A stretch of 55,136 nucleotides of DNA from assembly GCA_044340335.1 (NCBI GenBank), contig JBIITU010000001.1:1-55136 (forward strand), read 5' to 3'. The notes beneath the pieces were generated by a model that worked only from the letters and a program-made list of their open reading frames with translations, searched no databases and had not been told where the DNA came from. Made by a program: the position numbers and the translations under genes. The stretch comes from Steroidobacteraceae bacterium (GTDB lineage: Bacteria > Pseudomonadota > Gammaproteobacteria > Steroidobacterales > Steroidobacteraceae). This document shows, piece after piece, positions 12,369-38,196 of this stretch (positions are counted from its first letter, which is position 1; every line of letters starts with the position of its first letter).

Positions 12369-12472
12369 CGGCGCTAAGGTATGCCGCAGGGCAGTCACGC
12401 GCAACCTCGCGCCGGACGGGTCCCGCAGCTGGCCAAGATATTTGCATCGCACGCCACTAGAATCACATCCCT

Positions 12473-14970: not shown

Positions 14971-15066
14971 AAAGAAATCCGCGCGACGCGTCATGCCGGG
15001 GCTGGCTCGGCCGTCATGTCAGCAGGCGACGCAGTGTCGCCACGCAAGTTCCCAACGGAGAAAGAC

Positions 15067-15420
15067 ATGGCGAAGTTCCTGTTCCTGCTGCATGAGAACC
15101 CGGCCCAGTACGTCGGCATGAGCGCCGCCGAGATGGGCCAGATCATCGAGCGCTACGCGGCCTGGGCCGAGGGCCTCGCGGCGCGCGGCCAGCTTGCCGG
15201 TGGCGAGAAGCTTGCCGACGACGGTGGTCGCCAGCTGCGGCGCACGGCTGCCGGCGTGCTGGCGGTCGACGGTCCGTACACCGAGGCCAAGGACGTGATC
15301 GGCGGCTTCTTCATCGTCGAGGCGCAGTCGCTCGCAGCCGCCGAACTGCTCGCGCACGACTGCCCGCATCTCACCGGTGACAACTGGATCGAAGTGCGTG
15401 CGATCGAGTCCGTCGGCTGA
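15067..15420 (+). CDS. YCII-related / DGPF-domain protein
   Basis: MAKFLFLLHENP...VDGPYTEAKDVIGGFFIVEA is the DGPF(A)ETKE signature. GGAG lies upstream of the ATG at 15067. Confidence 0.85.
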   Translation: MAKFLFLLHENPAQYVGMSAAEMGQIIERYAAWAEGLAARGQLAGGEKLADDGGRQLRRTAAGVLAVDGPYTEAKDVIGGFFIVEAQSLAAAELLAHDCPHLTGDNWIEVRAIESVG

Positions 15421-16723
15421 AGCAGCGGCGCCCGGCGCGCTCGAGGCGGTGTTTCGCCGCGAGCGCGGCCGGCTGGTCGCGTTGCTGACGCGGCGCTACG
15501 GCCTCGGACGCCTCGCTGATGCGGAAGACGCCGTGCAGGGCGCGATGATCGCGGCGCTGCGGCGCTGGCCCTTCGACGGCATCCCGGCCAATCCCGCTGG
15601 CTGGCTGTATCGCGCCGCGTCGCGTCTGCTGATCGACCAGCTGCGCCGTGCTGCACCGCTGCTCGATGGCGACGCGGCGCTCGAAGTCATCGCTGCGCTG
15701 CCGGATGACGCTGCAGCGGATGGCGTGCAGTTCGCTGCGGAACTCGGCGACGACGAGCTGCGCCTGCTGTTCGCGTTGTGCCACCCGAGCCTGCCGCTCG
15801 AGTCGCAGCTCGCGCTGGCACTGCACAGCATGGGCCCGCTCGGGCTGCGCGAGCTCGCCGCGGCGTTGTTCACGACCGAGAGCGCGCTGGCGCAGCGCCT
15901 GGCGCGCGCGCGGCGCGCGTTGCTCGCGGCCGGCGTGTCGCTGGACCTGCCCGCGCCTGCGGCACTGCTGGCGCGACGCCGCGCGGTGCTGACGGCGCTC
16001 TATCTGCTGTTCGGCGAGGGTTACCAGAGCGCTGCAGGCGTGCACTACCTGCGTGCCGACCTGTGCGAGGAAGCGTTGCGCCTTGCGCGTGGGCTGGCCG
16101 AGCATCCGCTGCTCGGCGACGGCGAAGCCGACGCGCTGGTGGCGTTGATGCTGCTGCAGTCGGCGCGACTCGCGACGCGGTTGCCCGCCGACGGACGACC
16201 GCTGCTGCTGGCTGAGCAGGACAGGTCGCAGTGGGACAAGGGACGGATCGCGCTCGCGCACCGCTACCTGGAGCGGGCGCAACGCGCGGGCGAGCTGTCG
16301 AGCCTGCATCTGCAGGCGGCGATCGCCGCCGAGCATGCGACCGCGCCCGCGCTCGATGCGACCCGCTGGGCGCGCATCCTGCACTGGTATGAAACGCTGT
16401 GTCGCATCGACCCATCGCCGCCGGTGCGGCTCGGCCATGCGATCGCCACCGCCGAAGTGCATGGTGCGGCAGCGGGGCTTGAGCTGCTCGACCTGATGCT
16501 GTCGGAGGCGGGCGCTGCGCCCCGCGGGACGGCGGCGCCGTTCCTGCAGGCGGCCCGCGCCGAGTTGCTGGGACGTTTGGGCCACGCCGACGCCGCGCTG
16601 GCGGCCTGCGACGCGGCGATCGCCGCTGCGCGCTCGGCCACGGAGCGCGAGCTGCTGCTGCGCCGTCGCGCGGCGCTTGTCATATCGCCCGGCGCGCGTG
16701 CGCCCGGTCACGAAATGCGCTGA
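15377..16723 (+). CDS. ECF sigma factor with a long C-terminal TPR-like extension (ECF42-type)
   Basis: Sigma-2 region (AEDAVQGAMIAALRRW...NPAGWLYRAASRLLIDQLRR) and sigma-4 region (LREL/ALFTTESALAQRLARARRAL), followed by about 250 aa of helical extension. The start is uncertain and overlaps the DGPF gene. Confidence 0.8.
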   Translation: MTTGSKCVRSSPSAEAAAPGALEAVFRRERGRLVALLTRRYGLGRLADAEDAVQGAMIAALRRWPFDGIPANPAGWLYRAASRLLIDQLRRAAPLLDGDAALEVIAALPDDAAADGVQFAAELGDDELRLLFALCHPSLPLESQLALALHSMGPLGLRELAAALFTTESALAQRLARARRALLAAGVSLDLPAPAALLARRRAVLTALYLLFGEGYQSAAGVHYLRADLCEEALRLARGLAEHPLLGDGEADALVALMLLQSARLATRLPADGRPLLLAEQDRSQWDKGRIALAHRYLERAQRAGELSSLHLQAAIAAEHATAPALDATRWARILHWYETLCRIDPSPPVRLGHAIATAEVHGAAAGLELLDLMLSEAGAAPRGTAAPFLQAARAELLGRLGHADAALAACDAAIAAARSATERELLLRRRAALVISPGARAPGHEMR

Positions 16724-24350: not shown

Positions 24351-25781
24351 ATGGAAATAGAGTTTTTCGGCGCCGCCGGCGAGGTGACGGGTTCGTGTCA
24401 CGTGGTGCACGTCGGCGGCCGGCAGCTACTGCTCGACTGCGGCATGGTGCAGGGCGGGCGCGACGCCCCGGAACGCAACCGGGAGCCGTTTCCGTTCCAG
24501 GCCCAGGCCATCGACGCCGTGATCCTGAGTCACACGCATATCGACCATTGCGGCCGGCTGCCGCTGCTGGTCAAGCGCGGTTACCGCGGCCCGATCTACA
24601 CGAATGATGCCTGCGCGGACCTGCTGCCCATCCTGCTGCGTGACTCCGCGCATCTCGGCATCCGCGATGCCGAGCGCACCAATCGTCGGCGTGGCCCGGA
24701 TGAGCCACAGGCGCGGCCGCTGTATGACCTCGACGATGTCGAACGCACGCTGACGCTGGTCAAGCGGCTGCCCTACGACATGGTGCGACCGCTGCTGCCG
24801 GGCGTGCAGGTGCGGGTGCGCGATGCGGGCCACATCATGGGATCGTCGAGCATCGAGCTGTGGCTGGCCGAGGGCGAACTGCGGCGCAAACTCGTCTTCA
24901 GCGGCGATCTGGGCCAGTACGACTCGCCGATCCTGCAGGATCCGCATCGGTTCGACACGGCGGATCTCGTGCTGATGGAGTCCACCTACGGCGGCCGCCG
25001 GCACCGTGATCGCAAGGCGACCGAGCTTGAGTTCGGCGAAATCCTCGACGCTGCCTGGCGCGATGGCGGCAACATCATCATCCCGGCGTTCGCGATCGGC
25101 CGCAGCCAGGAAGTGCTGTACCTGCTCGGTGCGAACCGCGAAAGCTGGAAAGTCGACCGCTGGCAGGTGTTCCTCGACAGCCCGATGGCGATCGAGGCGA
25201 GCCGGGTGTACTGGAAGCATGCGGATCGCTATGACGCCGAAGCCCGGCATCTGCGCGCGTCGTTCGCGGACATGCCGCCGCTGCCGAACCTGACGCTGTC
25301 GCGCACCGGCGAGGAGTCGCAGCGCATCAACCGGATCCGCAGCGGCGCGCTGATCATCGCCGGCAGCGGCATGTGCAACGGCGGTCGCGTGCTGCATCAC
25401 CTTAAGCACAACGTGGAACGCCCGGAGTGCCACGTCGTCATCACCGGCTTCCAGGCGCCCGGCACGCTGGGCCGCGCGATCGTCGATCGTCTGCCGACAA
25501 TCCGGATCTATGGTGAAACGCTGCGGCTCGCAGCGCAGGTGCACACGCTGGGCGGACTCTCGGCGCACGGCGACCAGGAAGACCTGCTGCGCTGGTATGG
25601 GGGCTTCGAGCCGCCGCCGCCCGTCTGGCTCGTGCACGGCGAACCCGAGGCCGCGGCCGGTCTTGCGGCGCGCTTTCGCGAACGCGGCGTCGCCGCGACA
25701 CTCGCGCAACCCGGCATGCGTATCGACATGGCGTCGCTGCCGGCGCTGGCACATGATCATCCCCACGACGCACCCATGTGA
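24351..25781 (+). CDS. MBL-fold metallo-hydrolase with beta-CASP and RNA-specificity domains (RNase J/CPSF-like)
   Basis: The HTHIDHCG motif, beta-CASP layout and C-terminal SAHGDQEDL motif are present. Confidence 0.9.
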   Translation: MEIEFFGAAGEVTGSCHVVHVGGRQLLLDCGMVQGGRDAPERNREPFPFQAQAIDAVILSHTHIDHCGRLPLLVKRGYRGPIYTNDACADLLPILLRDSAHLGIRDAERTNRRRGPDEPQARPLYDLDDVERTLTLVKRLPYDMVRPLLPGVQVRVRDAGHIMGSSSIELWLAEGELRRKLVFSGDLGQYDSPILQDPHRFDTADLVLMESTYGGRRHRDRKATELEFGEILDAAWRDGGNIIIPAFAIGRSQEVLYLLGANRESWKVDRWQVFLDSPMAIEASRVYWKHADRYDAEARHLRASFADMPPLPNLTLSRTGEESQRINRIRSGALIIAGSGMCNGGRVLHHLKHNVERPECHVVITGFQAPGTLGRAIVDRLPTIRIYGETLRLAAQVHTLGGLSAHGDQEDLLRWYGGFEPPPPVWLVHGEPEAAAGLAARFRERGVAATLAQPGMRIDMASLPALAHDHPHDAPM

Positions 25782-27067
25782 GCGAAGCGACCGAACGCGA
25801 GCCGCTCAGCGTGCGCCCGCAGGAGCTCGCGGCGGTGGTCGCTGCCTTCCTGCTGCTGTTCTGTGTGCTCGGGGGCTACTTCGCCGTGCGGCCGGTGCGC
25901 GAGACGGTCGGCACCGTCATCGGGCGAGATGCAGTGCGGACCCTCTGGGGATTTACGGCGCTGTTCGCGATCGCGATCGTGCCCTTCTACGCGTGGCTGG
26001 TCTCCAGGGTGCGGCGCAGCCTGTTGTTGCCCGCGACCTATCTCGCGGTGGCGGCCGGTCTCGTGTTCTTCTCGTTCGAGTTCCGCAGCGAAGACGGCAT
26101 CCGCGCCGCGGGCGCGGCGTTCTACGTCTGGATCAGCGTGCTGAACCTGATGCTGGTGTCGGTGTTCTGGAGTTTTCTGCTCGAGATTTTCTCGTCGTCG
26201 CAGTCGAAGCGGCTGTTTGGCCTGATCGCAGCCGGCGGCACGGCCGGCGGATTTCTCGGCCCCATCGTCACGGATCTGACCGTCGGGAGCATCGGCAACG
26301 CGGGCGTGCTGCTGGTCGGCGCGGGCATGTTCATCGTGGCGATTTTCGCGCAGCTCGCGCTGATCGGCGCGGCGCGCCGGATCGCGGAGCGGGATGAAGG
26401 CAGCCCGGCCCCGCAACTGAACGAGGGTCTGGGCGGCAACCCCTTCGAGGGCTTCGCGCTCGTGGCCCGCTCGCGCTACCTGCTGATGATCGCGCTGTTC
26501 GTCGTGCTGCTGTCGGCCGTCAATACCTTTCTCTATTTCGAGCAGTTGAAGCAGGTGGAAGCGGCCTACGAGAGCATCGAGGCCCGCACCAGTGTTTTCG
26601 CCAAGTTCGATTACGTCGTGCAGGGCCTGACGATCCTGACGCAGCTGTTCCTGACGGGGCTGATCGCGACCCGGCTCGGCGTGACGGCGCTGCTGACGAT
26701 CGTGCCGGCCGTGATGGTTGTGGGGTTCTTCGGTCTTGCGGCCCTCGGCAGCTTCTGGGCGCTTGCGGTAGCGATGGTGATCCGTAGCTGGGGCGAGTAC
26801 GCGCTGGTGCGTCCGGGCCGCGAGATGCTGATGAGCCGCTTCGACAGCGTGACCAAGTACAAGGCGAAGAACCTGATCTATGTACCCGTGTATAGGGTCT
26901 CCGACTTCGTGTTCGCGCAGGCGCAGCGGGTGATGGAGGTCATGCTCAGCTCGGCCGGCGCGGCACTGGGCGGCGCGGCGCTCGCGGGTGGCTGGCTGGC
27001 CACCGGCTGGTGGCTCGGGCGGCGCTTCGACCGCGAGAAAGAACGCGCAGCGTCTCCTAAGCCGTAG
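25778..27067 (+). CDS. TLC/AAA-family (ATP:ADP antiporter-like) MFS-type membrane transporter homologue
   Basis: About 12 TM helices. YFAVRPVRE, FWSFLLEIFSSSQSKRLFGLIAAGGTAGG and EYALVRPGREMLM resemble Npt/TLC signatures. The GTG start overlaps the upstream stop (GTGA). Confidence 0.75.
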   Translation: MSEATEREPLSVRPQELAAVVAAFLLLFCVLGGYFAVRPVRETVGTVIGRDAVRTLWGFTALFAIAIVPFYAWLVSRVRRSLLLPATYLAVAAGLVFFSFEFRSEDGIRAAGAAFYVWISVLNLMLVSVFWSFLLEIFSSSQSKRLFGLIAAGGTAGGFLGPIVTDLTVGSIGNAGVLLVGAGMFIVAIFAQLALIGAARRIAERDEGSPAPQLNEGLGGNPFEGFALVARSRYLLMIALFVVLLSAVNTFLYFEQLKQVEAAYESIEARTSVFAKFDYVVQGLTILTQLFLTGLIATRLGVTALLTIVPAVMVVGFFGLAALGSFWALAVAMVIRSWGEYALVRPGREMLMSRFDSVTKYKAKNLIYVPVYRVSDFVFAQAQRVMEVMLSSAGAALGGAALAGGWLATGWWLGRRFDREKERAASPKP

Positions 27068-28328
27068 CGCTGATCGGTGCCGACAGCGCCGCGACGACGT
27101 CGCGCGCGGTGTCATAGCGGTCGTTCGGCTTCTTCGCGAGCAGCCGATCGAGCAGCGGCTGGAAGCCGGCGAGATCCGCCGGCAGTCGCGGCGCGTCCTG
27201 GGCCACGTGCGCCTGCAGGATGTCCATGGCCGTCTCGCCGTGGAACGGCTTATGGCCCGTCAACATCTCGTAGATCATCACGCCGAGGCTGTAGAGGTCG
27301 GAGCGGCCGTCGACAGGCAGCCCCTGCGCCTGCTCAGGGCTCATGAAGTAAGGCGAGCCGCGCAGCATGCCGGTGCGGGTCGAGTTCTGGGTGTTGTTGA
27401 GGTCCTTCGACAGGCCAAAGTCGATCAGCACGATATCGTCGTTCTCGCGCAGCATGACGTTCTGCGGCTTGAGGTCGCGGTGGATCAGGCCGGCTTCATG
27501 CACGACCTGCAGCGCGGCCGCGATGCGGCGCGCGTATTCGACGCTGGCGGCAACCGATAGCGGCTGCTTGATGCGTGCCGCGAGATCGCCGCGCGGAAAG
27601 TACTCCATCGCGAGGTACTCGCGACCGGCGTAGATGCCGTAGTCGTAGATGTCGACGACACAGGGGTGATCGATCGCGGCGATCGCGCGGTACTCGCGCG
27701 AGAGCAGTTCATTGACGGTGGCGTCGTCGAGTTCCTGCTCGGGGCCGACCTTGAGCGCGACGTTCGACTCGCCATCTGGTCCGGTCGCAAGATAGACCGT
27801 GGAAGATTCGGAGCGGCCGATCACGCGCAGGATCTCATAGCGCGGCACGATGCCATTCGCGCGCTCGATATCCGTCTGGGTTTCAGTGGCTGCCTGAGGA
27901 CGCGCGCGGCGCGCGAAGGCGGCGCGCCGTTCGGCGACTTCGAGCGCCTGGCGCAGCATGCCGTCGAGCCGGGCAGGACCCGCCGCGCTGCGCGGCAGGT
28001 AGTCCTCGGCGCCCTGCTTCAGCGCGGCGACCGCCGTCAGTTCGTTGCCGTCGTCGGCGATCACGACGAGGACCGGGCAGTCGGGCGTCTGTCGCAGTCG
28101 GCGCAGCCAGTCGAGGCCTGTGCAATCTGCCTTGGCCGGGTCACCGGCGAACGATGCGTGCAGCAGCAGCACGTCGCAGTGCTCGCGGCTTGCCGGCATC
28201 GCTTCGGGGGTCAGCGCGCCGAGGTCGACCACGCCGATCTCGGCATACGGGCGCACGGTGCCAACCACCTGCGACAACCAGGTTGCGATGGCAGGCTGCA
28301 GGCTGGCGATCGTGATGCGTTCGATCAT
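27057..28328 (-). CDS. Hanks-type Ser/Thr protein kinase with an N-terminal degenerate receiver-like domain
   Basis: Kinase motifs VALK, HRDLKPQN, DFG and SPE. The N-terminal roughly 140 aa has a CheY-like pattern but lacks key residues (DVLLLH, DYLPRS). Confidence 0.9.
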   Translation of the reverse strand: MIERITIASLQPAIATWLSQVVGTVRPYAEIGVVDLGALTPEAMPASREHCDVLLLHASFAGDPAKADCTGLDWLRRLRQTPDCPVLVVIADDGNELTAVAALKQGAEDYLPRSAAGPARLDGMLRQALEVAERRAAFARRARPQAATETQTDIERANGIVPRYEILRVIGRSESSTVYLATGPDGESNVALKVGPEQELDDATVNELLSREYRAIAAIDHPCVVDIYDYGIYAGREYLAMEYFPRGDLAARIKQPLSVAASVEYARRIAAALQVVHEAGLIHRDLKPQNVMLRENDDIVLIDFGLSKDLNNTQNSTRTGMLRGSPYFMSPEQAQGLPVDGRSDLYSLGVMIYEMLTGHKPFHGETAMDILQAHVAQDAPRLPADLAGFQPLLDRLLAKKPNDRYDTARDVVAALSAPISATA

Positions 28329-28335
28329 GGCCGCC

Positions 28336-30339
28336 TCATTGCACGAAGCGCATGCGCATGCGCGCGCGCTGGTCGATGGCGCCGCCGTCGCGCAACACGG
28401 GCTCGAAGCGCCAGCGCGACAGTGCCGCAATGGCCGCCGCGTCGAAGGTGCCGGCCGGCTGCGCAGTCAGGACCCGCACGTCGCCGACACTGCCGTCTGC
28501 ACGCACGACGAACTCCAGGTCGACCCAGCCCTCGATGCCTGCGTCGCGGGCAATGCGTGGATAGTCCGGCTCGACGAAGCGCGTGCGCTTGAGCGTGCTG
28601 ATGCCGACGAACGCAGTCTCGGCGCGTTGCCGTTCGCGCAGCGCGGTGATCTCGCTGGAGAGTCCGCCGAGCTCGGTCGTCGATGCGCCCAGCGCCTCGG
28701 CCTCGGTCAGCAGTCGGCCTGCCGCCGCGATGTCGCCGCGGCCCGCGGCAGCGCGCCCATCCGCGATCACCGTGCGCAGCAGTGACTGGCGTGCGCCGCT
28801 CGTCACCGCACTGCCCGGTTCGATGCGCTGCAGCTCCGTCAGCCAGTGTTTCGCGCTGTCATTCGCGGGCTCGATCAGGCGTCCCTCGCCGATGCGCTGG
28901 GTGATCAGCGCCGCTAGGCGCGTCGCGTCGTTGCCGCGCGCGGCATTCTGGCTGGCCGCGAACTGGGTGCGGATCGCGGTCAGTTCGGCTGGATCTGCGC
29001 CGGCTTCCTGCGCGCCCCGCAGCCAGCGTTCGACTGCGGCGCTGTCGCCGCGGGTCGCGCTCTGCCGCGCTTCGCCGAGCAGGCGGTTGCGCAGCTGCTG
29101 CGTCAGGCGATTCAGGCGCGCGTCACGCGGCGCAAGCGTGCGCGCGCTCTCGAGAAAGAAGCGGGCATTGTCGGACGCAGGTTCGAGCAGCGCGCCGCGC
29201 TGCAGGCGCAGCGCAGCATCGTCGAGCAGTTCCCGGAGCCGTTCGTCGACCTGCTGCCGCTGCAGCGCCCGACGGGTCTCCGACAATGCGGGATCAGCGC
29301 TGTCGCCCGGCGTCGCGCCGTCGAGCGCAGCCAGTGCCGCGCCGACATCGCCGCTCGCTGCGGCCGCGCGGGCCCGGGTCAGCAGCGCGCGTTCGCGCTC
29401 CTTGCCCAGCTGCGCAGTCAGGAACTCGATGCGAACGTTGTCGGGCTGCAGCCCGCGCGCGGCTTCGATGCTGCGCGATGCTGCATCGAGCTGGCCGGCA
29501 AGCATGGCCTGCTCGGCGCTGGTCAGCACGGCATTGAAGACCCGATCGATGCCGCTGCGCGCGCGCGCGTTGTCGGCATCCTGCTCGAGCACGCGCTGGT
29601 AGAGCTCGGCGGCGCTGGCACCGGCCGGAGCCAGCAGTGCGCCGGACTCCAGCGCGGCATCGGCCTGCTCGAGCAACGGCGTCACCGCTGGATCGGCCGG
29701 ACGCGCAGTCGCCGTCGCCCTGGTGCTGTTCGCGGCGGTGCCCGGCGCGTCGTCGCCCCCCAGCAGCCAGATCGCCGCGACGCCGGCAACAGCGAGCAGC
29801 GCTGCCGGCAGCAGCCAGCGCCTGCTCGCCGCGCCGGCGCTGCCGAAAGTCGGTTCGGCGGGTCGCCGGGCCGGCGTGGGGAGGACGGCGTGTTCTTCGT
29901 CGTGGCGCCGCATCGCTGCTTCGATGAACAGGCGCACGCGCTGCTCCGAGACGGGCTTGTGCAGGAAGCGGTAGACCTCGCCGCTCGCGATCTGCGCCGC
30001 GAGTTCGCCCTGATGTTGGGCGTTGCCGGCGACGACGAGCACGAGATCCGGAAACTGCTGGCGCAACCGCTGGGTCAGTCCGGCGAGCGATTCCGCACTC
30101 GCCGCCGCATCGACCAGCGCCACACCGCCGCGTCCGGCGAGGATCTGCTCGGCGAGCACGTCCTCGCTGATGCACAGCGTGATCGCATGATCGGAGGTCA
30201 CGACGCGCTCGAGCGTGTCGATGAGGCCGTCGTCCTTGGACAGCACGACGAGCCCTATCCCGGCGCCCACACCGGCACCAGGCATACGAAGTTCGTCGCG
30301 AGTTCGCTCCGGTGGCACGTTCAGGGCGGGTTTCTCCAA
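28336..30339 (-). CDS. receiver domain - TM - helical repeat region - TonB C-terminal domain protein
   Basis: REC-like LVVLSKDD...VALVDAAA...FLHKPV. TM helix WLLPAALLAVAGVAAIWLL. Three G-x-L-[LI]-x-P-x-x-[DS]-[NS]-A repeats. TonB_C: EPDYPRIARDAGIEGWVDLEFVVRADGSV. TTG start at 30339 with GGAG upstream; an ATG alternative exists at 30285. Confidence 0.85.
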   Translation of the reverse strand: MEKPALNVPPERTRDELRMPGAGVGAGIGLVVLSKDDGLIDTLERVVTSDHAITLCISEDVLAEQILAGRGGVALVDAAASAESLAGLTQRLRQQFPDLVLVVAGNAQHQGELAAQIASGEVYRFLHKPVSEQRVRLFIEAAMRRHDEEHAVLPTPARRPAEPTFGSAGAASRRWLLPAALLAVAGVAAIWLLGGDDAPGTAANSTRATATARPADPAVTPLLEQADAALESGALLAPAGASAAELYQRVLEQDADNARARSGIDRVFNAVLTSAEQAMLAGQLDAASRSIEAARGLQPDNVRIEFLTAQLGKERERALLTRARAAAASGDVGAALAALDGATPGDSADPALSETRRALQRQQVDERLRELLDDAALRLQRGALLEPASDNARFFLESARTLAPRDARLNRLTQQLRNRLLGEARQSATRGDSAAVERWLRGAQEAGADPAELTAIRTQFAASQNAARGNDATRLAALITQRIGEGRLIEPANDSAKHWLTELQRIEPGSAVTSGARQSLLRTVIADGRAAAGRGDIAAAGRLLTEAEALGASTTELGGLSSEITALRERQRAETAFVGISTLKRTRFVEPDYPRIARDAGIEGWVDLEFVVRADGSVGDVRVLTAQPAGTFDAAAIAALSRWRFEPVLRDGGAIDQRARMRMRFVQ

Positions 30340-30455
30340 GCGCCCGGTCTCCGCGGTCAGGTCAAACCGCAGTGTAGGCAGCCGGCGACGGTCGTAAAGC
30401 AGATTCTGTCACATCGAGCCGGTGCTGCCCGGGAAACGCCAACCGGGTCGCAGTT

Positions 30456-30923
30456 TCACTCGCCCCCGGCAGTGACCGGTTCGGCGCGCGACTCGACCAG
30501 ATTCGTGCTGCGGCAGTCGAACACGATCTCGTCGCGCTGGTTCAGCAGCTGGTAGCGGAACACGGTGACGCCGCGCTCCGGCCGGCTGTCGGAGGGGCGC
30601 TTCGACAGGCATTCGGCCCGCGCCCGCAGCCGGTCGCCGGCGCGCACGGCGATCGGGAAGCGCACGTCATCCCAGGCGATGCCGCAGATCCAGGCGATAT
30701 CGTGACTGATCTCGTGGTCGAGGCGGCGCCACAGCGCCATGGTGTAGATGCCCGACGCAATGACCTCGCCGAACACTGAGTCGCGCGCGGCATCCGTGTC
30801 GGTGTGAAAATACTGCGGGTCGTAGCGGCGGGCGAACTCGAGCATCGGCTCGAGCTCGACGGTCAGCGTGCCGCTCTCGCGGGTTTCTCCGATCACCAGG
30901 TCTTCGAGGTAGCGTTTGTTCAT
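30456..30923 (-). CDS. MaoC-family (R)-hydratase hotdog-fold protein
   Basis: YDPQYFHTDTDAARDSVFGEVIASG is a typical MaoC dehydratase motif. Confidence 0.9.
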   Translation of the reverse strand: MNKRYLEDLVIGETRESGTLTVELEPMLEFARRYDPQYFHTDTDAARDSVFGEVIASGIYTMALWRRLDHEISHDIAWICGIAWDDVRFPIAVRAGDRLRARAECLSKRPSDSRPERGVTVFRYQLLNQRDEIVFDCRSTNLVESRAEPVTAGGE

Positions 30924-30966
30924 GGCAGCAGGTCCGGGCAGCGATGGTGCGAGGCGCTTGGTGGCA

Positions 30967-31962
30967 ATGCAAGCCCTGGTGACGGCTGGCGCGGTTGCGC
31001 TCGCGCTGCTGTCACTGCTCGTGCTGGCCGCCGAGCGCCTCTGGTGGGCGGATCTGCTGGTGCATTTCCGCCCGCACTACTGCATCTTCGCGTTGCTGTT
31101 GCTGGGTCTGGCGCAGTGGCTGCGACGACGCGACTGGCTGATCGGCGCGCTGGTCGTGCTGGCTCTGAACGTCCTGCCGCTGGTGCGCGACCTGGGCGCG
31201 CCGTTGCCGATCACGGCTGCGCACGCGGCGACTGACGCAGGTCCCGCACTGCGGATCGCGGCGTCCAACCTGTTGTGGCGCAACCGCGAACACGACGCAG
31301 CGATCGACTGGGCGCGACAGACGCAGGCTGACCTGCTCGTGTTCGTCGAAGTCGACGCGCGCTGGGAGCAGGCGCTCGGCCAGCTGCGCGACACCTATCC
31401 CCACGCGCGCACAGCCCGCCGCGCCGGCTACAGCGGCACGCTGGTGCTGTCGCGCTGGCCGCTGGGCGAGCTGACTCAGCTCGATGCCGGCACACGAGGC
31501 ACGCCCGAGATCGCCATCGACGTCGCGACGCCGGGTGGCAGCCTGCAGCTCATCGCGGTGCACGCGACCTGGCCCCTGGGCGGCGCGATGTCTGCCGCGC
31601 GGGCGCGCGAGTTCGGGACGATCGCGGCGGCGGCGCGCAGTGCCACGCTGCCCGTCGTCGTGATCGGCGACTTCAATGTCACGCCGTTGTCGCCGCATTT
31701 CACGGCACTGGTCGAGCGCGGCCGGCTGCGTGACGCCGCGGCCGGTTTCGGCTGGCAGCCGACCTGGCCCAGCTTCCTGCCGCTGCTGGGTCTGCGGATC
31801 GACCATGCGCTGGTGTCGCCCGACATCCAGGTGAACTCTTTCGCGCGTGGTCGCGTCGAAGGCAGTGACCATCGGCCGATCATCGTTGACCTGCGGTTGC
31901 CGCCGCGGGGAGTATCGGCGCTCCAGCACCGCAGGTCAGGCGACACAGGGGACACCGGATGA
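30967..31962 (+). CDS. endonuclease/exonuclease/phosphatase (EEP) family protein with N-terminal TM helices
   Basis: LLVFVEVD, IAVHATWP, VVIGDFNVTP, RIDHALVS and GSDHRPI motifs. The start is uncertain (30916, 30961 or 30967). Confidence 0.85.
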   Translation: MQALVTAGAVALALLSLLVLAAERLWWADLLVHFRPHYCIFALLLLGLAQWLRRRDWLIGALVVLALNVLPLVRDLGAPLPITAAHAATDAGPALRIAASNLLWRNREHDAAIDWARQTQADLLVFVEVDARWEQALGQLRDTYPHARTARRAGYSGTLVLSRWPLGELTQLDAGTRGTPEIAIDVATPGGSLQLIAVHATWPLGGAMSAARAREFGTIAAAARSATLPVVVIGDFNVTPLSPHFTALVERGRLRDAAAGFGWQPTWPSFLPLLGLRIDHALVSPDIQVNSFARGRVEGSDHRPIIVDLRLPPRGVSALQHRRSGDTGDTG

Positions 31963-32972
31963 GCAGATTTTCGAGCATGCCGGCACGCCGCGCGATGATC
32001 GGCGCGTGGGCCGCCGTGGCTCTGGCACTGGCTGCTGCGGTCACCAGCGCAGCGCAGGCGCAGGATGTCAATGCGGCGCAGCGGCGCGGCGCAGCGGAGT
32101 ATCTCGGCGCGCTCGCGAGCGGCAACGCCCAGGCGGTCGGCTTTGCGATCCATCCGGCGGAGCTCGACAAGCTGCGGCTGACGCTCCTGACCCAGCTGCG
32201 CCAGGAAGCGGCGCGCGGCGACGGTACGGTGCGCGCGCGGCTGTTCGGCCAGGCGACGCCGCTGGCCGAAGTGGAGCGCTGGACGACGCTGGTGTTCTTC
32301 ACGAACCTCGCGCGGCGGCTGGAGTTGCCGCGCGGCCGCGTCTACGACGACCTGAAGGGCGTTGTGACGATACGCGACACGGGCGAGTTGACGCATGTCG
32401 TCGTGCGCGGCCGCCAACCGCGCGACCGTGGCGCGACCCAGGTGCTCGAGATCGTCAGCCTCCTGCCTTACGGCAAGGACTGGAAGGCGGCGCTGCCGAG
32501 CGAACTGGAGGCGCAGATCGAAGACCTGATCGACGGGCGCACGCCTGCGCGGGGCGCAGCGCCGGCCCCGGCGGCCGGCGCTGCCGCTGGTGCTGCCGCG
32601 ACGACGACCCCCGTCGCAGCCGGGGCGGCACCGGCGACGCCGGCAGCCAATCCGCCGGACATCGTCGCGATGCTGGCCGCTGCGGAGAAGTCGCTGGTCG
32701 ATGGCCGCTGCGATGAGTACTACCGCGAATACCTGAGCCCGAACTTCCGGCGTACGCTGTCCAACAGGATGTTCGACACGCTCATTGCAAGTTGCCGCAA
32801 CAGCCTGGGGGCGCGCGAGTCGCTGATTGCCGCGCTGCGCATCGTGCGGCGCACCGCGCCCCGTCTCGAGTACGAAGGCACCCGCGCCAGCTACGACGTC
32901 AGCGGCCAGGGCCTCGCGTTCGACCGCTTCGTGCTCGAGAAGATCGACCGCCGCTGGTACGTGGCCGAGTGA
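31959..32972 (+). CDS. secreted hypothetical protein with two domains joined by an Ala/Pro-rich linker
   Basis: Signal peptide MIGAWAAVALALAAAVTSAAQA. ATGA overlap with the EEP gene. Good GC3 bias. No family recognised. Confidence 0.7.
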   Translation: MSRFSSMPARRAMIGAWAAVALALAAAVTSAAQAQDVNAAQRRGAAEYLGALASGNAQAVGFAIHPAELDKLRLTLLTQLRQEAARGDGTVRARLFGQATPLAEVERWTTLVFFTNLARRLELPRGRVYDDLKGVVTIRDTGELTHVVVRGRQPRDRGATQVLEIVSLLPYGKDWKAALPSELEAQIEDLIDGRTPARGAAPAPAAGAAAGAAATTTPVAAGAAPATPAANPPDIVAMLAAAEKSLVDGRCDEYYREYLSPNFRRTLSNRMFDTLIASCRNSLGARESLIAALRIVRRTAPRLEYEGTRASYDVSGQGLAFDRFVLEKIDRRWYVAE

Positions 32973-32992
32973 TGACAGCCTCTGGAGTCAAG

Positions 32993-33907
32993 ATGAAACT
33001 GAACCCGCGCTTCGCGATTCTCGCCCCGCTGCTGCTGCTGGCCGCCTGCGCCGTATCGCCCGAGAAAGTCACGATCCGTCCGCTGCCAGCGGTCGATCTC
33101 GATCGTTTCATGGGCCCGTGGTACGTCATCGCCAACATCCCGACCTTCATCGAGAAAGGCGCCCATGACGCGATCGAGACCTACCGCCTCGATGACGACG
33201 GCACGATCGCCACGACGTTCACGTTCCGCAAGGGCAGCTTCGATGGTCCCCTGAAGGAGTACAACCCGCGCGGCTTCGTGGTCCCGGGAACGCAGAACGC
33301 GATCTGGGGCATGCGCTTCATCTGGCCGATCAAGGCGGAGTATGTCGTCGCCTGGGTCGATGCCGATTACAGCGAGACCATCATCGCCCGCAGCAGCCTC
33401 GACTATGTCTGGGTCATGGCGCGCACGCCGACACTGCCGCAGGACCGCTACGATGCGCTGCTCGCGCGCGTGCAGGCACTGGGCTACGACATGTCCAAGG
33501 TCGAGAAGGTGCCGCAGAGCAGCCGCGCGGCGCCTGCCGCTGCGACGCCGGCACCGCCGGCCATGCCGGCATTGCCCGATGGCGTTGCGTCGCTCGGTCA
33601 GGCTGAGCTGCGGGCGCGCATCGAACGCCAGGATCCGCGCCTGATCGTGCTCGACGTGCGCACGGCTGAGGAATTTGCCGCCGGTCATGTGCCCGGCGCG
33701 CGCAACATTTCGCATGACCTGCTGGCCGGACGACTCGCCGAGCTCGCTGACGCGCGCGCCAGCGACCTGGTCGTCTACTGTCGCAGCGGACGGCGCGCGG
33801 CGTTGGCCCTCGAGACGCTGCACGCAGCGGGTTTCGAGCGGCTCGCGCACCTCGAGGGCGACTACCTCGCCTGGGAGGCAACCGCCGCGCCGGCGAGCCC
33901 GCCTTGA
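32993..33907 (+). CDS. lipoprotein fusion: bacterial lipocalin (Blc-like) plus rhodanese domain
   Basis: Lipobox LLLAAC. FMGPWYVIANIP...YVWVMARTP is the Blc lipocalin signature. An Ala/Pro linker follows, then rhodanese (LVVYCRSGRRA active-site loop). GGAG lies 7 nt upstream of the ATG at 32993. Confidence 0.85.
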   Translation: MKLNPRFAILAPLLLLAACAVSPEKVTIRPLPAVDLDRFMGPWYVIANIPTFIEKGAHDAIETYRLDDDGTIATTFTFRKGSFDGPLKEYNPRGFVVPGTQNAIWGMRFIWPIKAEYVVAWVDADYSETIIARSSLDYVWVMARTPTLPQDRYDALLARVQALGYDMSKVEKVPQSSRAAPAAATPAPPAMPALPDGVASLGQAELRARIERQDPRLIVLDVRTAEEFAAGHVPGARNISHDLLAGRLAELADARASDLVVYCRSGRRAALALETLHAAGFERLAHLEGDYLAWEATAAPASPP

Positions 33908-35742
33908 GCCGGTGATCCCGGTGTCGTGATCGCGCCTGCCTCGTCGCAGGCTTCGATGGCGACGACCAGCAGGCCGGGGCCGCCGTGCACACCCAGCGCG
34001 GTGCCGAGCGTCGTCAGATGGGCGCTCTCGATGTTCGCGATCCTGGCGCCGAGCGCCGCCAGCAGCGCCTGCGCTTCTGCCTCGGCGCGACCATGCCCGA
34101 CCAGCAGCCGGTAGCGGGGTGCGGGTGGCAGGCGCCGCAGGATGAAATCGGCAAACCGCTCGATGCGGCGGCGGCGCACCCACAGCACGCCGCAGGGACG
34201 CACCAGGCCGTCGCTGGTCGTGTGCAGCACCGGCATGAAACGCAGCAGTCTCGACAGCGTGCGAACCATGGGCGGAACGCGGCCACCGCGCACTGCGAAA
34301 TCGAGCGTCGAGGTCAGCGCCCAGGTCTGGATCCGCGCGCGCGCGGCGCGAGCGCCGCGTTCGACGGCATCGAGATCCGCGCCCGCCATCGCGAGTTCGG
34401 CGGCGCGGATCGCGACCAGCCCTTGTCCGAGCGAAACGCTGGCCGAATCGAGCACGCGGACACGTCCGCCCTCGATGCGCTGCGCAGCGCTGACTGCCGC
34501 GTTGTAGCTGCCGCTGACCCGGCTGGACAGCGAGATCGACAGCACCGACTCGTAATGTGAGGCGAGGAATTCATACAGCCGCCGGAAATCGCCGGGCGGT
34601 GGTTGCGAGGTCTTGGGCGGGTCGGGGTTGTGCTCGATCTCGCGATAGAACTCCTCCGATGTCAGCGTGACCTTGTCGAGGTACGAGCGTCCGCCGAAAT
34701 GCACCCGCACCGGCACCATGTGCAGTTCCAGCGATTCGAGCAGGGAGTCCGGCAGGTCCGCTGCCGAGTCCGTGACGATCGCGACCCGCCGCGAGCTGGC
34801 GTGGTGCGCCGCGCTGCGCTGCGCGCGCATGTCGTCGGCCTTCTGCGCGCTGATGCTGCCGTACTGCGCCACGAACTCGAACAGCTGCTCGGGATCGTTG
34901 GTGTGGATGTGGATGCGCAGCTTGTTGCGCGTGCCGCCAACGACGAGGCTGGAGCCGAACGCGCCGAGACTCTCGCGCACCCGGCGCGGGTCCAGTTCCG
35001 CGCCCGTGATCATGCACTCGGTGCAGTACCGATGGCGCAGGTCACCGGGGCCGCTGTCGACCATCTCTTCGTTGCCGCCATGCACGGGTGCGGCGACGAC
35101 CTGCATCTCGCCGCGCGCCAGCCAGGCGGTCATGCCTTCGATCAAGTCGACGAAGCCCTGTGCGCCGGCATCCACGACGCCGGCGATGCGGGTCTCCTCC
35201 AACACGCCCTGCGTGCCGGCGAGCGAACGGCGCACGGGTTCGATCACGGCGCTGAACAGCGCGCGAAAGTCGGCCGCTTTCGCCTCGCCGACGAGACGCT
35301 CGAGTTCGGCGGCGAAATCCGTCAGCACGGTCAGCAGCGTGCCCTCGCGCGGCTGCGTCAGTGCATCGCGCGCGTAGGTGGCGCCGACGCGCACGGCGGC
35401 CGCGAAACTGGTCGCGTCGAGCCGCTCGAGGTGCCCGACGCGGTCGCCGACGCCGAGCAGGAACTGCGCGAGGATCGCGCCGGAGTTGCCGCGCGCGCCA
35501 TCGAGCGCGGCGTCCGCGATCCGCGTCAGCAGCTGCCCCGCGTGCCGCGGCGTGTCGCGCTCGAGCGTCGGCAGGACGGCCGCGAGCGTCATCGACATGT
35601 TGGTCCCGGTGTCGCCGTCGGGCACGGGGAACACGTTGATCTTGTTGATGTGGTCGGTGCGCGCGAACAGCCGGTAGATGCCGGCGCGCAGCGCGTCGGC
35701 GAGCTGTGGACCGTCAAGCGCTTCGAGGGTCGCGGCGCTCAC
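33862..35742 (-). CDS. DAK2 (DhaL/FakA-N-like) domain fused to a DegV (FakB-like fatty-acid-binding) domain
   Basis: INVFPVPDGDTGTNM is the Dak2 motif. The C-terminal half RVAIVTDSAADLP...KTSQPPPGDF...SISLSSRVSGSYNAA is DegV. The GTG start overlaps the gspB stop (GTGA). Confidence 0.9.
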   Translation of the reverse strand: MSAATLEALDGPQLADALRAGIYRLFARTDHINKINVFPVPDGDTGTNMSMTLAAVLPTLERDTPRHAGQLLTRIADAALDGARGNSGAILAQFLLGVGDRVGHLERLDATSFAAAVRVGATYARDALTQPREGTLLTVLTDFAAELERLVGEAKAADFRALFSAVIEPVRRSLAGTQGVLEETRIAGVVDAGAQGFVDLIEGMTAWLARGEMQVVAAPVHGGNEEMVDSGPGDLRHRYCTECMITGAELDPRRVRESLGAFGSSLVVGGTRNKLRIHIHTNDPEQLFEFVAQYGSISAQKADDMRAQRSAAHHASSRRVAIVTDSAADLPDSLLESLELHMVPVRVHFGGRSYLDKVTLTSEEFYREIEHNPDPPKTSQPPPGDFRRLYEFLASHYESVLSISLSSRVSGSYNAAVSAAQRIEGGRVRVLDSASVSLGQGLVAIRAAELAMAGADLDAVERGARAARARIQTWALTSTLDFAVRGGRVPPMVRTLSRLLRFMPVLHTTSDGLVRPCGVLWVRRRRIERFADFILRRLPPAPRYRLLVGHGRAEAEAQALLAALGARIANIESAHLTTLGTALGVHGGPGLLVVAIEACDEAGAITTPGSPAQGGLAGAAVASQAR

Positions 35743-36482
35743 TGGATCGGCACGAGGAAACGGTTGCCGTTCCAGGACAGCACGGCGCCTTCAGGCACGA
35801 TCTGTTCGATGCGCAGGCCCCCAGGCAGAGTGGTGCCATCGCTGCCGCGCTGGCCGTTGACGAACACGAAACGCTTCGCCGGGTCCGGATCGTAGACATG
35901 CAGGCTGAGCGCGACGTCCGGCACGTTCTGGCCGCGCGCGACCAGGGCGTCGCGGCTTGCGTAGTTCGCATTGCTGCTGCCGCGCGGCGCCGCGTCCGCG
36001 CCGAGCGGCGTGGTTGCGCCTGCTGCGGCAGGTTGCGCCGGCAGGTAGTCGTTCGGATTGAACGGTGCGCCGGCGGGGTTGCGCGCGTTCGCTGCAGTCG
36101 TCGGGTCGGGCGCGCCGGGTTCGGGATCGTTGAGCGCCGGGTCGACGATCAGCGGTGGATTGAACCGCGTCGTCGGTGCGGCCGCGCCAGGCACGGCGGT
36201 CGGGCCGGTCGCGGCGGCGGGTGCGGTTGTCGCAGGCGCCGGGCTCGAGGTCGCCGCCGGGGCAGCGGGCAAGGCCACTGCCGCAGGTGCCGGCGGTGCA
36301 TCGGGGCGCGTCATGACCCACAGCAGGATCAGCAGGTTCACACCGAGCAGCAGGCCGAGCGCCACGGCCCAGACCGGGAACCGCGCGCGTGGCGAAGCGA
36401 TGCGGGGCTGGAACACGCCGGGTCCCGACTGCCGCTGCCGCTCGCTTTCGCTTTTCTTCAGCGCATCGAGGATGAAGGACAT
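35739..36482 (-). CDS. gspB: GspB/ExeB-family general secretion pathway protein
   Basis: MSFILDALKKSESERQ is the canonical GspB N-terminus. It is followed by a single TM helix, a Pro/Ala-rich region and a conserved C-terminal domain. Confidence 0.8.
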   Translation of the reverse strand: MSFILDALKKSESERQRQSGPGVFQPRIASPRARFPVWAVALGLLLGVNLLILLWVMTRPDAPPAPAAVALPAAPAATSSPAPATTAPAAATGPTAVPGAAAPTTRFNPPLIVDPALNDPEPGAPDPTTAANARNPAGAPFNPNDYLPAQPAAAGATTPLGADAAPRGSSNANYASRDALVARGQNVPDVALSLHVYDPDPAKRFVFVNGQRGSDGTTLPGGLRIEQIVPEGAVLSWNGNRFLVPIQ

Positions 36483-36483
36483 C

Positions 36484-38196
36484 TCAGGCTCCCGGCAGCG
36501 GCGTGGGCGGACTGGCGGCCGCGTTCGGTACGGCGTTCGGTGCAGCGTCGGGGGCTGCTTCCTGTGCAGTGACCAGCCGCGGGGATTCTCCCGGCAGCAC
36601 GCTGTCGATCATGACCTGGGTGGGGATGTCGGCGATGCCGTCCGGCTCGAGCCGATGCCGCCGCTGGAACTCCGCGACCAGGCGCATCATCGCGGCGTCA
36701 TAGATGCCGTTCGCAGGCTGCGCCGGCGCATTGCCGGAGGCGCGCAGGCTCTGTTGCAGGCGTTGCACCGCGGTGCCGCGGGCGCCGGGTTCGAGCGGCT
36801 TCGGTTCATCACGACCCGCGCGCCACAGCAGCACGTAGTCGCCGAACCACGCGCGCGACAGATCGGCGAGCGGCACGTCGCGCAACGTGCCGCCGAGACT
36901 CAGCGCGGCCTTGTCGTCGGTCAGCGCCGCGAGCACGACCTGGTGGTCGGTGCCGGTGGCATCACGCAGGATCAGGATCGCAGGCCGGTTGAACTGCAGC
37001 AGCTCGGCGAGCGTGCCGCGCTGCGCGAGGCAGGCGAGGCCCTGCTGTTGCGCCTGTGCGCAGGGCGCGACGTCGCCGACGACATAGCGCGCGTCCCACA
37101 GCGCAAACAGCTTGTTGAACGCATTGTCACCGTCGGTCTCGGTCGCGAAGCGCTGCAGCAGGTCTTCGATGCGCGCGGTGCCGGGTGCAGTCGCCTGGGT
37201 CGGCGCGGCACTGGGCGCGATGTCGGCGGGTTCGACGACTGCCGCGGCGGGCGCCGCCGCCGTCATGCTGTCGGCCGCGGGGTCGTCGGTCGCGCCGAAC
37301 ACGCGCCACAGCACGAACGCGGTCAGCAGCGCGGCGACCACGCCGGCGCCGCCGAAGGCCCAGGGCAACCACGCGGGGGCGATCGGCCGGTCGAAGACCT
37401 CGGTGGCAGCGCGCCGCACGATCGCTGGTGTCACGCGGTGCCGGTCCTGCGTGTAGGCACCCAGCAGCGCGCGGTCGCTGATGACGTTGATCAGGCGCGG
37501 CACGCCGCGCGACAGCCGGTAGGTTTCGCGCAGCGCCGCAGGCGAGAAAATGTCGCTGGTCGCGCCGGCGACGCGCAGCCGGTGGCGGATGTAGGACGCA
37601 GACTCGTCGGCCGACAGCGGGTCCAGATGGTAACGGCCGGTGACGCGCTGCGCGAGCTGCCGCAGCTCGACGCGATCGAGGATGTCGCGCAGCTCAGGCT
37701 GGCCGATCAGGATGATCTGCAGCAGTTTCTGGGTTTCGGTTTCGAGATTGGTCAGCAGCCGCACCTGCTCGAGCACTTCGGGCGCGAGGTTCTGCGCCTC
37801 GTCGACGACCAGCACGACACGCTTGCCCTGCGAATGGGCGCGCAGCAGGTAGCTGTTCAGGATATCGACCAGCTCCTTGACGCTGCCGATGGCCGAATCC
37901 GGCACGCCGACGCCGAGTTCCTCGCAGATCGTCAGCAGGAACTCCGGCGCGCTGATCCGCGGGTTCAGGATCAGCGCGACTTCGGCGTTCTTCGGCGTCT
38001 GCGCCAGCAGCGAGCGGATCGTGGTGGTCTTGCCGGTACCGACCTCACCGGTCAGCTGCACGAAGCCGCCGGCCTCGGTGATGCCGTACAACAGGTGCGC
38101 GAGCGCCTCCGAGTGACGCTCGCTGAGGAACAGGTAGCGCGGATCCGGGGTGATCGCGAACGGTTTTTCGTTGAGGCCGAAAAACGGCAGATACAT
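36484..38196 (-). CDS. exeA: ExeA/GspA-family AAA ATPase with a C-terminal peptidoglycan-binding domain
   Basis: MYLPFFGLNEKPFAITPDPRYLF...GEVGTGKTT is the ExeA signature. TM helix. C-terminal PG_binding_1-like segment (LVAEFQRRHRLEPDGI). Confidence 0.9.
   Translation of the reverse strand: MYLPFFGLNEKPFAITPDPRYLFLSERHSEALAHLLYGITEAGGFVQLTGEVGTGKTTTIRSLLAQTPKNAEVALILNPRISAPEFLLTICEELGVGVPDSAIGSVKELVDILNSYLLRAHSQGKRVVLVVDEAQNLAPEVLEQVRLLTNLETETQKLLQIILIGQPELRDILDRVELRQLAQRVTGRYHLDPLSADESASYIRHRLRVAGATSDIFSPAALRETYRLSRGVPRLINVISDRALLGAYTQDRHRVTPAIVRRAATEVFDRPIAPAWLPWAFGGAGVVAALLTAFVLWRVFGATDDPAADSMTAAAPAAAVVEPADIAPSAAPTQATAPGTARIEDLLQRFATETDGDNAFNKLFALWDARYVVGDVAPCAQAQQQGLACLAQRGTLAELLQFNRPAILILRDATGTDHQVVLAALTDDKAALSLGGTLRDVPLADLSRAWFGDYVLLWRAGRDEPKPLEPGARGTAVQRLQQSLRASGNAPAQPANGIYDAAMMRLVAEFQRRHRLEPDGIADIPTQVMIDSVLPGESPRLVTAQEAAPDAAPNAVPNAAASPPTPLPGA

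Follow-up and report, generated by a model that had tools for sequence, protein, structure and literature searches.

Nearly all that is understood of the C-terminal domains of TonB proteins concerns their role as heads through which ExbBD motors deliver force. TonB itself is a single-pass inner-membrane protein with a short cytoplasmic stub at its N-terminal end, a middle part that spans the periplasm, and a canonical C-terminal domain with a YP motif; its partners are encoded by exbBD. The subject of the present analysis is a stretch of 55,136 nucleotides (the window; G+C ~70%) of a Steroidobacteraceae bacterium (assembly GCA_044340335.1, contig JBIITU010000001.1, positions 1 to 55,136), in which a gene here termed gene A encodes a protein of the same general layout that carries, instead of the stub, a cytoplasmic receiver of ~150 residues, and whose operon partners are kinases instead of exbBD. 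In the window the partner is gene B, located just downstream, whose product is a Hanks-type Ser/Thr kinase with a receiver-like N-terminal domain. All the parts of gene A are known domain types, and together they make up a TonB-like, non-transducing trans-envelope protein wired to phospho-signalling.

A survey of periplasmic force transducers describes the SxxxH motif as essential for docking on the ExbB/TolQ motor and leaves receiver or kinase fusions unmentioned (PMC12204202). No description of the receiver-TonB_C architecture, or of the five-gene cassette in which it occurs in related lineages, was found in the literature, in agreement with the preliminary description of this locus, which had put the architecture forward as undescribed.

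On functional grounds, the closest analogues are GltJ and LapD, both of which work without a receiver or kinases. In its cytoplasmic part GltJ reportedly has zinc-ribbon and GYF domains that bind MglA-GTP and AglZ, and the associated motor is said to be AglRQS. GltJ of Myxococcus is a TonB-like protein with cytoplasmic switch domains (PMC11135422), and GltJ/GltG of the Agl-Glt gliding machinery resemble gene A as single-pass TonB-like proteins in which N-terminal domains in the cytoplasm serve as a regulatory switch and a periplasmic part reaches an outer-membrane complex. GltJ differs from gene A in its zinc-ribbon and GYF domains in place of a receiver, the AglRQS motor, the lack of known kinase or Che-type partners, and a different phylum. 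As GltJ shows, a cytoplasmic regulatory input is possible in a TonB_C protein. In LapD, which is located in the inner membrane, a signalling domain on the cytoplasmic side governs a periplasmic output domain that captures a partner in the periplasm or outer membrane (PMC3032553, PMC3032545), as is proposed here for gene A. Unlike gene A, LapD responds to c-di-GMP on a degenerate EAL domain, possesses a HAMP domain, two transmembrane (TM) helices, and an output that binds LapG, and involves neither phosphorylation nor a TonB_C domain. In the FecA-FecR-FecI system, a single-pass inner-membrane protein links a TonB-dependent transporter to a cytoplasmic regulator, and this arrangement matches one of the alternatives considered below. 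FecR contacts the N-terminal signalling domain of the transporter, undergoes proteolytic processing, and acts on an ECF sigma factor; gene A differs from it in the TonB_C head, the cytoplasmic receiver, and the kinase partners.

Organization of the Locus

The start of gene A that had been assigned earlier, a TTG codon at 30339, is right, being preceded by a GGAG element (Table 1) and agreeing with the MEK(R/P) N-terminus common to the homologues. Between the TGA stop codon of gene A (28338-28336) and the ATG of gene B at 28328 the gap is exactly 7 nt, as previously noted, which implies that the two genes are co-transcribed. A promoter and terminator scan of 26800-31100 gave no consensus matches. 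The 3' end of gene B is overlapped for 11 nt (27057-27067) by a convergent gene for an MFS transporter (25778-27067, plus strand), and no terminator-like hairpin was found between the two.

Domain Architecture of Gene A

The architecture of gene A rests on three independent lines, namely hidden Markov models (HMMs), a profile search against the PDB, and an AlphaFold model analysed with Foldseek. The model, built on 76 sequences with a predicted local distance difference test (pLDDT) score of 88.8, is numbered from Met19, so that the numbering of the open reading frame (ORF) corresponds to that of the model + 18. It is composed of a (beta/alpha)5 domain, disordered linkers on either side of a short hydrophobic helix, a helical region, and a C-terminal alpha/beta domain.

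The N-terminal domain had been recognised as a receiver from its acidic pocket, phospho-acceptor Asp, and Lys-Pro pair; the assignment holds by profile and structure, not by Pfam. Built from the N-terminal 125 residues of 33 orthologues, a profile matches solved receivers, including 3kcn (E 6.8e-10), 3hv2 (2.8e-8), HupR (2.5e-7), 2rjn, and NtrC-type receivers, and the modelled domain, which has the (beta/alpha)5 fold, retrieves 3kcn, 2jk1, 3hv2, and 2rjn in Foldseek with target-normalised TM-scores of 0.74-0.83. D36, D77, and K128-P129 are invariant in alignments of both 18 and 33 sequences, and in the alignment with 3kcn D36, D77, and K128 occupy the canonical acidic-pocket, acceptor, and Lys positions. 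The receiver is the most conserved region of the protein, and in the window's family its beta4-beta5 face is strictly conserved. The canonical Thr (LATG) occupies the Thr/Ser switch position in the orthologues of Povalibacter and Steroidobacter.

The membrane is crossed by one TM helix, as expected, which in the family is Gly/Ala-rich and poorly conserved in sequence; none of the 76 family members has a His or an SxxxH motif in or beside it. The helical region that follows is uninterrupted over model residues 201-557 (ORF 219-575) and forms a rod of ~360 residues, whose AlphaFold helices have a pLDDT >90 and which matches the TPR superhelices of P58IPK, SPY, and OGT in Foldseek; Pfam matches to TPR families, searched with the rod alone, were all sub-threshold. 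The helical periplasmic stretch with three motif copies that had been read from the sequence is thus recovered both in the model, which is all-helical here, and by the motif scan: G-x-L-x-x-P-x-x-x-[NS]-A occurs three times in gene A versus a shuffled mean of 0.05, and 52 of the 76 relatives also have three copies. No proline-rich spacer is present in gene A, the linker being this TPR-like superhelix.

The C-terminal head is a canonical TonB domain, as first proposed. Pfam TonB_C (PF03544) matches it with an E-value of 5.5e-19 and 68.8 bits against a cut-off of 24.6 and is the only Pfam match of gene A at E<=1, and NCBIfam TIGR01352 agrees with the assignment. At the sequence level it aligns with the C-terminal domain of P. 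aeruginosa TonB (6fip, 6i97) over the whole domain length (E 2e-14), and Foldseek retrieves 6i97_D with a target-normalised TM-score of 0.87 and 35% identity.

This domain is the only one of the four defining features of TonB found in gene A, the other three being SxxxH, the proline-rich spacer, and the association with exbBD. MotA_ExbB and ExbD families are missing from the 11 gene tables compiled for loci of relatives, most of which extend 6-9 kb to either side of gene A or of the CheA-like gene described below. As the preliminary description had stated for the window, neither ExbB, ExbD, a TonB-dependent receptor, nor a histidine kinase is encoded among the 24 ORFs scanned with Pfam out of ~35 candidates; the 24 comprise gene A, gene B, three neighbours, and 19 others, and ~12 ORFs lie outside the scan, five of which were named only from the gene tables of relatives. 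Because SxxxH is missing in 76 of 76 members, a helical rod replaces the proline-rich spacer, and no exbBD occurs in the neighbourhoods examined, gene A is not a classical energy-transducing TonB.

Gene B, a Kinase with a Receiver-Like Domain

The catalytic domain of gene B is matched by Pfam Pkinase (154.7 bits, E 4e-45), and Response_reg is matched at a sub-threshold level (20.6 bits); the precomputed Pfam list has it for many orthologues that are more distant. The AlphaFold model (pLDDT 82.6, predicted TM-score (pTM) 0.61) consists of a (beta/alpha)5 receiver-like fold, a disordered linker, and the kinase, which has a PknB-like fold according to Foldseek (32-33% identity); neither a TM segment nor a sensor domain was found in the protein. 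The kinase is likely active, since 28 orthologues keep K193, E212, the HRDLKPxN motif (H283-R-D285, N290), D303-F-G, and S-P-E without exception. The Gly-rich loop has degenerated to GxSxxxxVY.

To judge from the same alignment, the N-terminal domain is a pseudo-receiver that cannot accept phosphate, because the acceptor column contains H, S, A, G, L, V, or T and never Asp in the 28 orthologues. The position of the receiver Lys is occupied by Arg in the window's clade and by Lys in other clades; the earlier reading of a Hanks kinase whose receiver-like N-terminus has lost both residues is therefore accurate for the window. Receiver-Ser/Thr kinase fusion proteins, response regulators whose output is a protein kinase, resemble gene B in that the receiver fold is N-terminal and precedes a Hanks kinase; gene B differs from them in lacking the acceptor Asp and in adjoining a gene for a membrane protein with an apparently functional receiver. 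When the receiver of gene A and the receiver-like domain of gene B are compared with each other, hhalign gives an E-value of 3e-3 and 18% identity. A recent common origin was rejected on this basis, and the two domains, both receiver-like, appear to be only distantly related and not recent paralogues.

Phyletic Range and Conservation of the Pair

Gene A has more than 500 homologues and, among the matches listed, nearly all are full-length and named 'TonB family protein', a database label that hides a distinct family. A scan of one genome per species yielded 110 gene A loci. Those with family- or genus-level names belong nearly all to Steroidobacteraceae or Steroidobacterales and include the cultured Povalibacter uvarum DSM 26723 and a Steroidobacter metagenome-assembled genome (MAG); many other loci are labelled only Gammaproteobacteria or Pseudomonadota. 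From these sequences the family appears confined to Steroidobacterales. A gene A-kinase pair is also present in a MAG labelled Acidobacteriaceae (L064, PLUI01000061.1) but, since the range is otherwise strictly Steroidobacterales, this label is probably due to a binning error and not to horizontal transfer. The system is frequent in Steroidobacteraceae from soil metagenomes and is present in cultured strains.

The pseudo-receiver kinase lies directly downstream of gene A in 56 of the 70 loci with at least 1.5 kb of downstream sequence, with gaps of 10-45 nt, and five shorter loci show the start of the kinase. The neighbourhood of the receiver-TonB_C protein and the kinase is conserved in relatives down to ~40% identity, and the pair recurs in a sister clade at ~30% identity. 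In Povalibacter and Steroidobacter, gene A is directly followed by the convergent MFS gene, which in the window follows the kinase; the kinase slot is thus empty. The flanks of gene A are conserved as well, and include the MFS gene, a beta-CASP gene, an EEP phosphatase gene, and the gene of a 337-aa protein of unknown function.

The last two of these flanking genes are divergent from gene A (30916-32972, plus strand) and encode a membrane-anchored phosphatase/nuclease of the EEP family (348 aa) and the 337-aa protein, which is secreted and has no Pfam match. Of 80 genome loci of the gene A family, 47 carry the gene of the 337-aa protein and 33 the EEP gene, in most cases just upstream of gene A; loci without the kinase are among them.

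A Wider Che-Type Cassette in Related Lineages

A full-library search with the TPR rod of gene A gave 1608 relatives (representative library), which can be divided into four groups. The first contains many relatives with the architecture of gene A. In the second (P0281, P0283, P0305, P0315, P0341; 830-930 aa) a pseudo-receiver is fused before the A-type receiver, and the resulting layout, exemplified by L084:3190-5679 and L085:6320-9106, is a pseudo-receiver (without Asp and with Lys replaced by Arg), an A-type receiver, a TM helix, a TPR rod, and TonB_C; P0281, P0283, and P0341 pass the Response_reg threshold by means of a second, N-terminal receiver. The third group is made up of proteins of ~680-720 aa with a receiver-like N-terminal domain that has lost the Lys, and the fourth of unrelated long TPR arrays. 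By a loose analogy only, the tandem fusion suggests that an A-type receiver can work beside a non-phosphorylatable one. A relationship between the pseudo-receiver of the tandem clade and that of gene B was considered and rejected, the HMM of gene B giving no match. In this clade, P0281 overlaps the stop codon of a relA/spoT gene, and P0305 is followed, as a single case, by a gene for a TonB-dependent receptor.

Two members of the Lys-less group lie in an operon composed of gene A, a receiver-like Ser/Thr kinase, a protein with Hpt and HATPase_c domains, CheY, and CheX, and a metagenome scan seeded with this group yielded 80 loci. All five genes occur in 28 of the 28 sister-clade loci with at least 6.5 kb downstream of gene A, in the order gene A-kinase-CheA-like-CheY-CheX in 26 of them and with the kinase before gene A in 2; the shorter loci agree with the five-gene order as far as they extend. 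The kinase is encoded in 57 of the 58 sister-clade loci with at least 1.5 kb, L147 being the only one without it, and is separated from gene A by 3-45 nt. Gene calls on contigs of 0.9-1.6 Mb, together with Pfam, confirm the operon, and the ORF ends in L108 place the first four genes in overlap or at most 8 nt apart. Eight neighbour genes of the window were tested, and none is present at the loci of the five-gene clade.

The catalytic domain places the histidine kinase of the cassette in the CheA class (NCBIfam CheA models). Two TM helices enclose a periplasmic loop of ~180 residues and are followed by a PAS-like region, an Hpt domain, and a CheA-type catalytic domain, at which the protein ends; no P5/CheW-like domain was found in it. 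The relatives of this kinase number more than 2000, and the three with an organism name are all from Steroidobacteraceae. The co-occurrence of a CheA-class kinase, a single-domain CheY, and CheX in the operon recalls the chemosensory pathways with alternative functions. Unlike the canonical Che pathway, the CheA-like protein of the cassette has its own TM sensor and no P5 domain, and MCP, CheW, CheR, and CheB are all missing from the 11 gene tables.

The same genes are found around gene A in two other layouts. In Povalibacter and Steroidobacter, CheA-like, CheY, and CheX genes lie immediately upstream of gene A, and in Povalibacter, where the CheA-like gene adjoins and the Ser/Thr kinase is missing, the receiver of gene A is fully canonical, Thr included. 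In two loci of the window's own family (L036, L081) gene A and the kinase are followed by a soluble CheA-class protein, which in L036 lies in the slot that is syntenic with the window and ends just before the same MFS gene. Since sister lineages hold gene A, the kinase, CheA-like, CheY, and CheX together, the two-gene unit of the window is best read, on gene content, as a reduced form of a modular cassette. The lack of a histidine kinase noted earlier is thus true of the window's scanned ORFs but not of the system as a whole, as relatives have a CheA-class kinase in the same operon.

Two secreted proteins, one of 501 aa that contains two CxxCH haem motifs and one of 123 aa, are encoded on the same strand before the operon in part of the five-gene clade (L169:3293-5225, L108:6623-8574), the former in 26 and the latter in 41 of the 80 metagenome loci. 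The di-haem protein was rejected as an operon partner, its presence being limited to a subclade and judged to be synteny.

Proposed Mechanism and Alternative Readings

The reading preferred here, tentatively and with a probability of about 0.45, is that gene A is the envelope-spanning arm of a Steroidobacterales phospho-signalling cassette that works from the inside out under the control of phosphorylation. The receiver would be phosphorylated by His-Asp transfer from the CheA-class kinase, where this is present, with CheY and CheX as a competing sink as in multi-CheY systems, and gene B would add a Ser/Thr input, either by docking through its pseudo-receiver or by phosphorylating the disordered juxtamembrane linkers. 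The state of the receiver would govern whether the periplasmic arm dimerises or which conformation it takes, and this in turn would decide whether the TonB_C head engages an outer-membrane target. The head may dock by beta-strand pairing on the TonB boxes of outer-membrane proteins and, without coupling to the proton-motive force, would bind, occupy, or report on these boxes instead of pulling. The analysis shows the arrangement of domains, the residues that are conserved, the lack of the motor-coupling motif, the operon partners, and the phyletic range; phosphorylation of the receiver, contact between gene A and gene B, the target in the outer membrane, and the signalling direction are points that we infer. 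The inside-out direction is favoured because receivers are input modules, because the receiver of gene A is most canonical where a histidine kinase adjoins, and because the histidine kinase of the cassette already has a sensor of its own; His-to-Asp transfer is a more natural source of phosphate than the Hanks kinase because CheA-class kinase, CheY, and CheX are in the same operon in relatives.

Several results weigh against this reading. Pfam Response_reg does not match the receiver of gene A even at E<=1, and in the window the switch position at the end of beta4 is Ala (LVVAG). In the five-gene clade the receiver of gene A lacks the Lys, so that there it is probably, on its sequence, a binding domain and not a phospho-acceptor. 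The proposal that alpha5 of the receiver is conserved specifically in kinase-containing lineages was discarded, the difference being no larger than for other segments. Homologues of CheA-like, CheY, and CheX are missing from the 55-kb window, and no gene for an outer-membrane partner is linked to gene A. Furthermore, the kinase is missing in 14 of the 70 informative loci, including that of the cultured Povalibacter uvarum, and part of the gene A-kinase adjacency could reflect strong regional synteny; as the region is broadly syntenic, adjacency within the window's family is weaker evidence than it appears. The coupling of gene A to the kinase, as first put forward, is consequently maintained as a conserved neighbourhood (56 of 70 loci, and the sister clade) but not as an obligatory one. 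Likewise, the idea of an outer-membrane contact regulated by phosphorylation is backed by the architecture and the pairing, with the reservation that the kinase is dispensable and that a His-Asp donor is more natural.

Signalling in the opposite direction, which is somewhat unlikely, would make gene A the TM sensor subunit of gene B, with rod and head sensing the state of the periplasm or outer membrane, for example TonB boxes exposed by ligand-loaded transporters, and with the receiver of gene A pairing with the pseudo-receiver of gene B in a relay analogous to FecA-FecR. Gene B has neither a TM helix nor a sensor domain, is tightly co-operonic with gene A, and shares with it receiver-type domains, which commonly dimerise; the Lys-less receiver of the five-gene clade resembles a binding module, the fusion of a pseudo-receiver to an A-type receiver does exist, and the head closely resembles others that bind to exposed TonB boxes. 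However, the receiver in the window's family retains the acceptor Asp and the Lys and is fully canonical beside CheA-like where the Ser/Thr kinase is missing, which argues for an input role; a sensor loop in the periplasm is already part of the CheA-class kinase, no relationship can be detected between the pseudo-receiver of the fusion clade and that of gene B, and one TM helix of unconserved sequence is poorly suited to passing on conformational signals. Strict conservation of the acceptor Asp, the Lys, and the beta4-beta5 face in the window's family, and the persistence of gene A among phospho-signalling genes in three operon layouts, also make it improbable that the protein is a structural tether or scaffold, similar to TolA or SjdR, between the inner membrane and the outer membrane or peptidoglycan, with a receiver serving only localisation or assembly and a kinase that is co-expressed yet separate in mechanism. 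Such a role would fit the long and rigid rod, the degenerate receiver of many remote relatives, and the kinase missing in one clade, and there are precedents among TonB-like proteins for structural roles unrelated to transport (SjdR of Anabaena, PMC8262864).

A genuine TonB paralogue, which would use ExbB-ExbD encoded elsewhere to energise some of the TonB-dependent transporters and have transduction gated by its receiver, would account for the canonical C-terminal domain, with its 35% identity to P. aeruginosa TonB, and for the database name; it is very unlikely in view of the lack of SxxxH or His in all 76 members, the unconserved helix, the TPR superhelix in place of a proline-rich spacer, and the neighbourhoods examined, which are without exbB/exbD. 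Least probable of all is that gene A and gene B are neighbours only through regional synteny and are not functionally coupled: the conserved flanks, and the kinase slot that is empty in Povalibacter between intact flanks, agree with mere adjacency, but the pair recurs at 3-45 nt in the sister clade, which shares 0 of the 8 window neighbour genes tested, and the gene order is kept at ~30-40% identity.

If the head of the inside-out arm does bind TonB boxes, outer-membrane transporters would be regulated or monitored by phosphorylation without ExbBD, and His-Asp, Ser/Thr, and Che-like signalling would be merged in one operon. A more specific claim, that gene A is the first response-regulator-type protein with a periplasmic output touching the outer membrane, in which a CheA/CheY/CheX-like phosphorelay and a Hanks kinase set the engagement of TonB boxes, is doubtful at present; if true, it would define a new class of trans-envelope signalling, to date seen only in Steroidobacterales. 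The cultured Povalibacter uvarum DSM 26723 and Steroidobacter make the hypothesis directly testable.

Table 1. Features of gene A, gene B, and the associated CheA-class kinase. Positions are those of the window unless a locus is given.
Feature	Position	Strand	Basis
Gene A: receiver - TM - TPR-like rod - TonB_C protein, 667 aa	28336..30339	minus	ORF, homologues, AlphaFold model
Shine-Dalgarno-like GGAG, 9 nt upstream of the gene A start codon (TTG)	30349..30352	minus	sequence reading
Cytoplasmic receiver (REC) of gene A, residues ~28-150	29890..30258	minus	profile vs PDB receivers, fold, invariant residues
Single Gly/Ala-rich TM helix of gene A, residues 175-194, without His/SxxxH	29758..29817	minus	76-member family comparison
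Periplasmic all-helical TPR-like superhelix, residues ~219-575	28615..29685	minus	AlphaFold helices, Foldseek
Repeat motif copy 1, G-A-L-L-A-P-A-G-A-S-A-A, residues 233-244	29608..29643	minus	motif scan
Repeat motif copy 2, G-A-L-L-E-P-A-S-D-N-A, residues 382-392	29164..29196	minus	motif scan
Repeat motif copy 3, G-R-L-I-E-P-A-N-D-S-A, residues 486-496	28852..28884	minus	motif scan
TonB C-terminal domain with YP motif, residues 590-665	28345..28572	minus	Pfam, TIGR01352, PDB, fold
Spacer GGCGGCC, 7 nt, from gene A stop to gene B ATG	28329..28335	minus	sequence reading
Gene B: pseudo-receiver and Hanks Ser/Thr kinase, 423 aa, without TM helix	27057..28328	minus	ORF, Pfam Pkinase, AlphaFold model
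Pseudo-receiver of gene B, residues 4-142; acceptor Leu/His, Lys replaced by Arg	27903..28319	minus	model, alignment
Kinase catalytic domain of gene B, residues 164-406	27111..27839	minus	alignment, Foldseek
Self-sensing CheA-class kinase, examples	L108:12351-14561; L169:9001-11211; L076:2562-4985		

Other Genes in the Window

Some further genes of the window are worth recording. At 35739-38196 (minus strand) a GspA/ExeA-like protein of 570 aa (AAA_22, AAA_16, and PG_binding_1) is followed by a 247-aa ORF, which corresponds to a T2SSB/GspB-like gene in L001; fusions of AAA_22 ATPases with long arrays of the TPR-like repeat of gene A occur elsewhere (P0255, 1482 aa). A single ORF at 32792-33907 (plus strand) appears to join lipocalin-like and rhodanese parts and may be a fusion or the result of a miscalled upstream start; Lipocalin_2 and Rhodanese are two separate adjacent genes in L001 and L003. 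At 11883-13918 a Fur-family regulator (minus strand) is divergent from a CobW/CobW_C GTPase (plus strand), a layout typical of Zur-controlled zinc-homeostasis pairs. Finally, at 15016-16723 (plus strand) a gene with a YCII domain is followed by the gene of a sigma factor with Sigma70_r2 and DUF6596 domains, and a second ECF-type sigma factor is encoded at 46752-47447 (minus strand).

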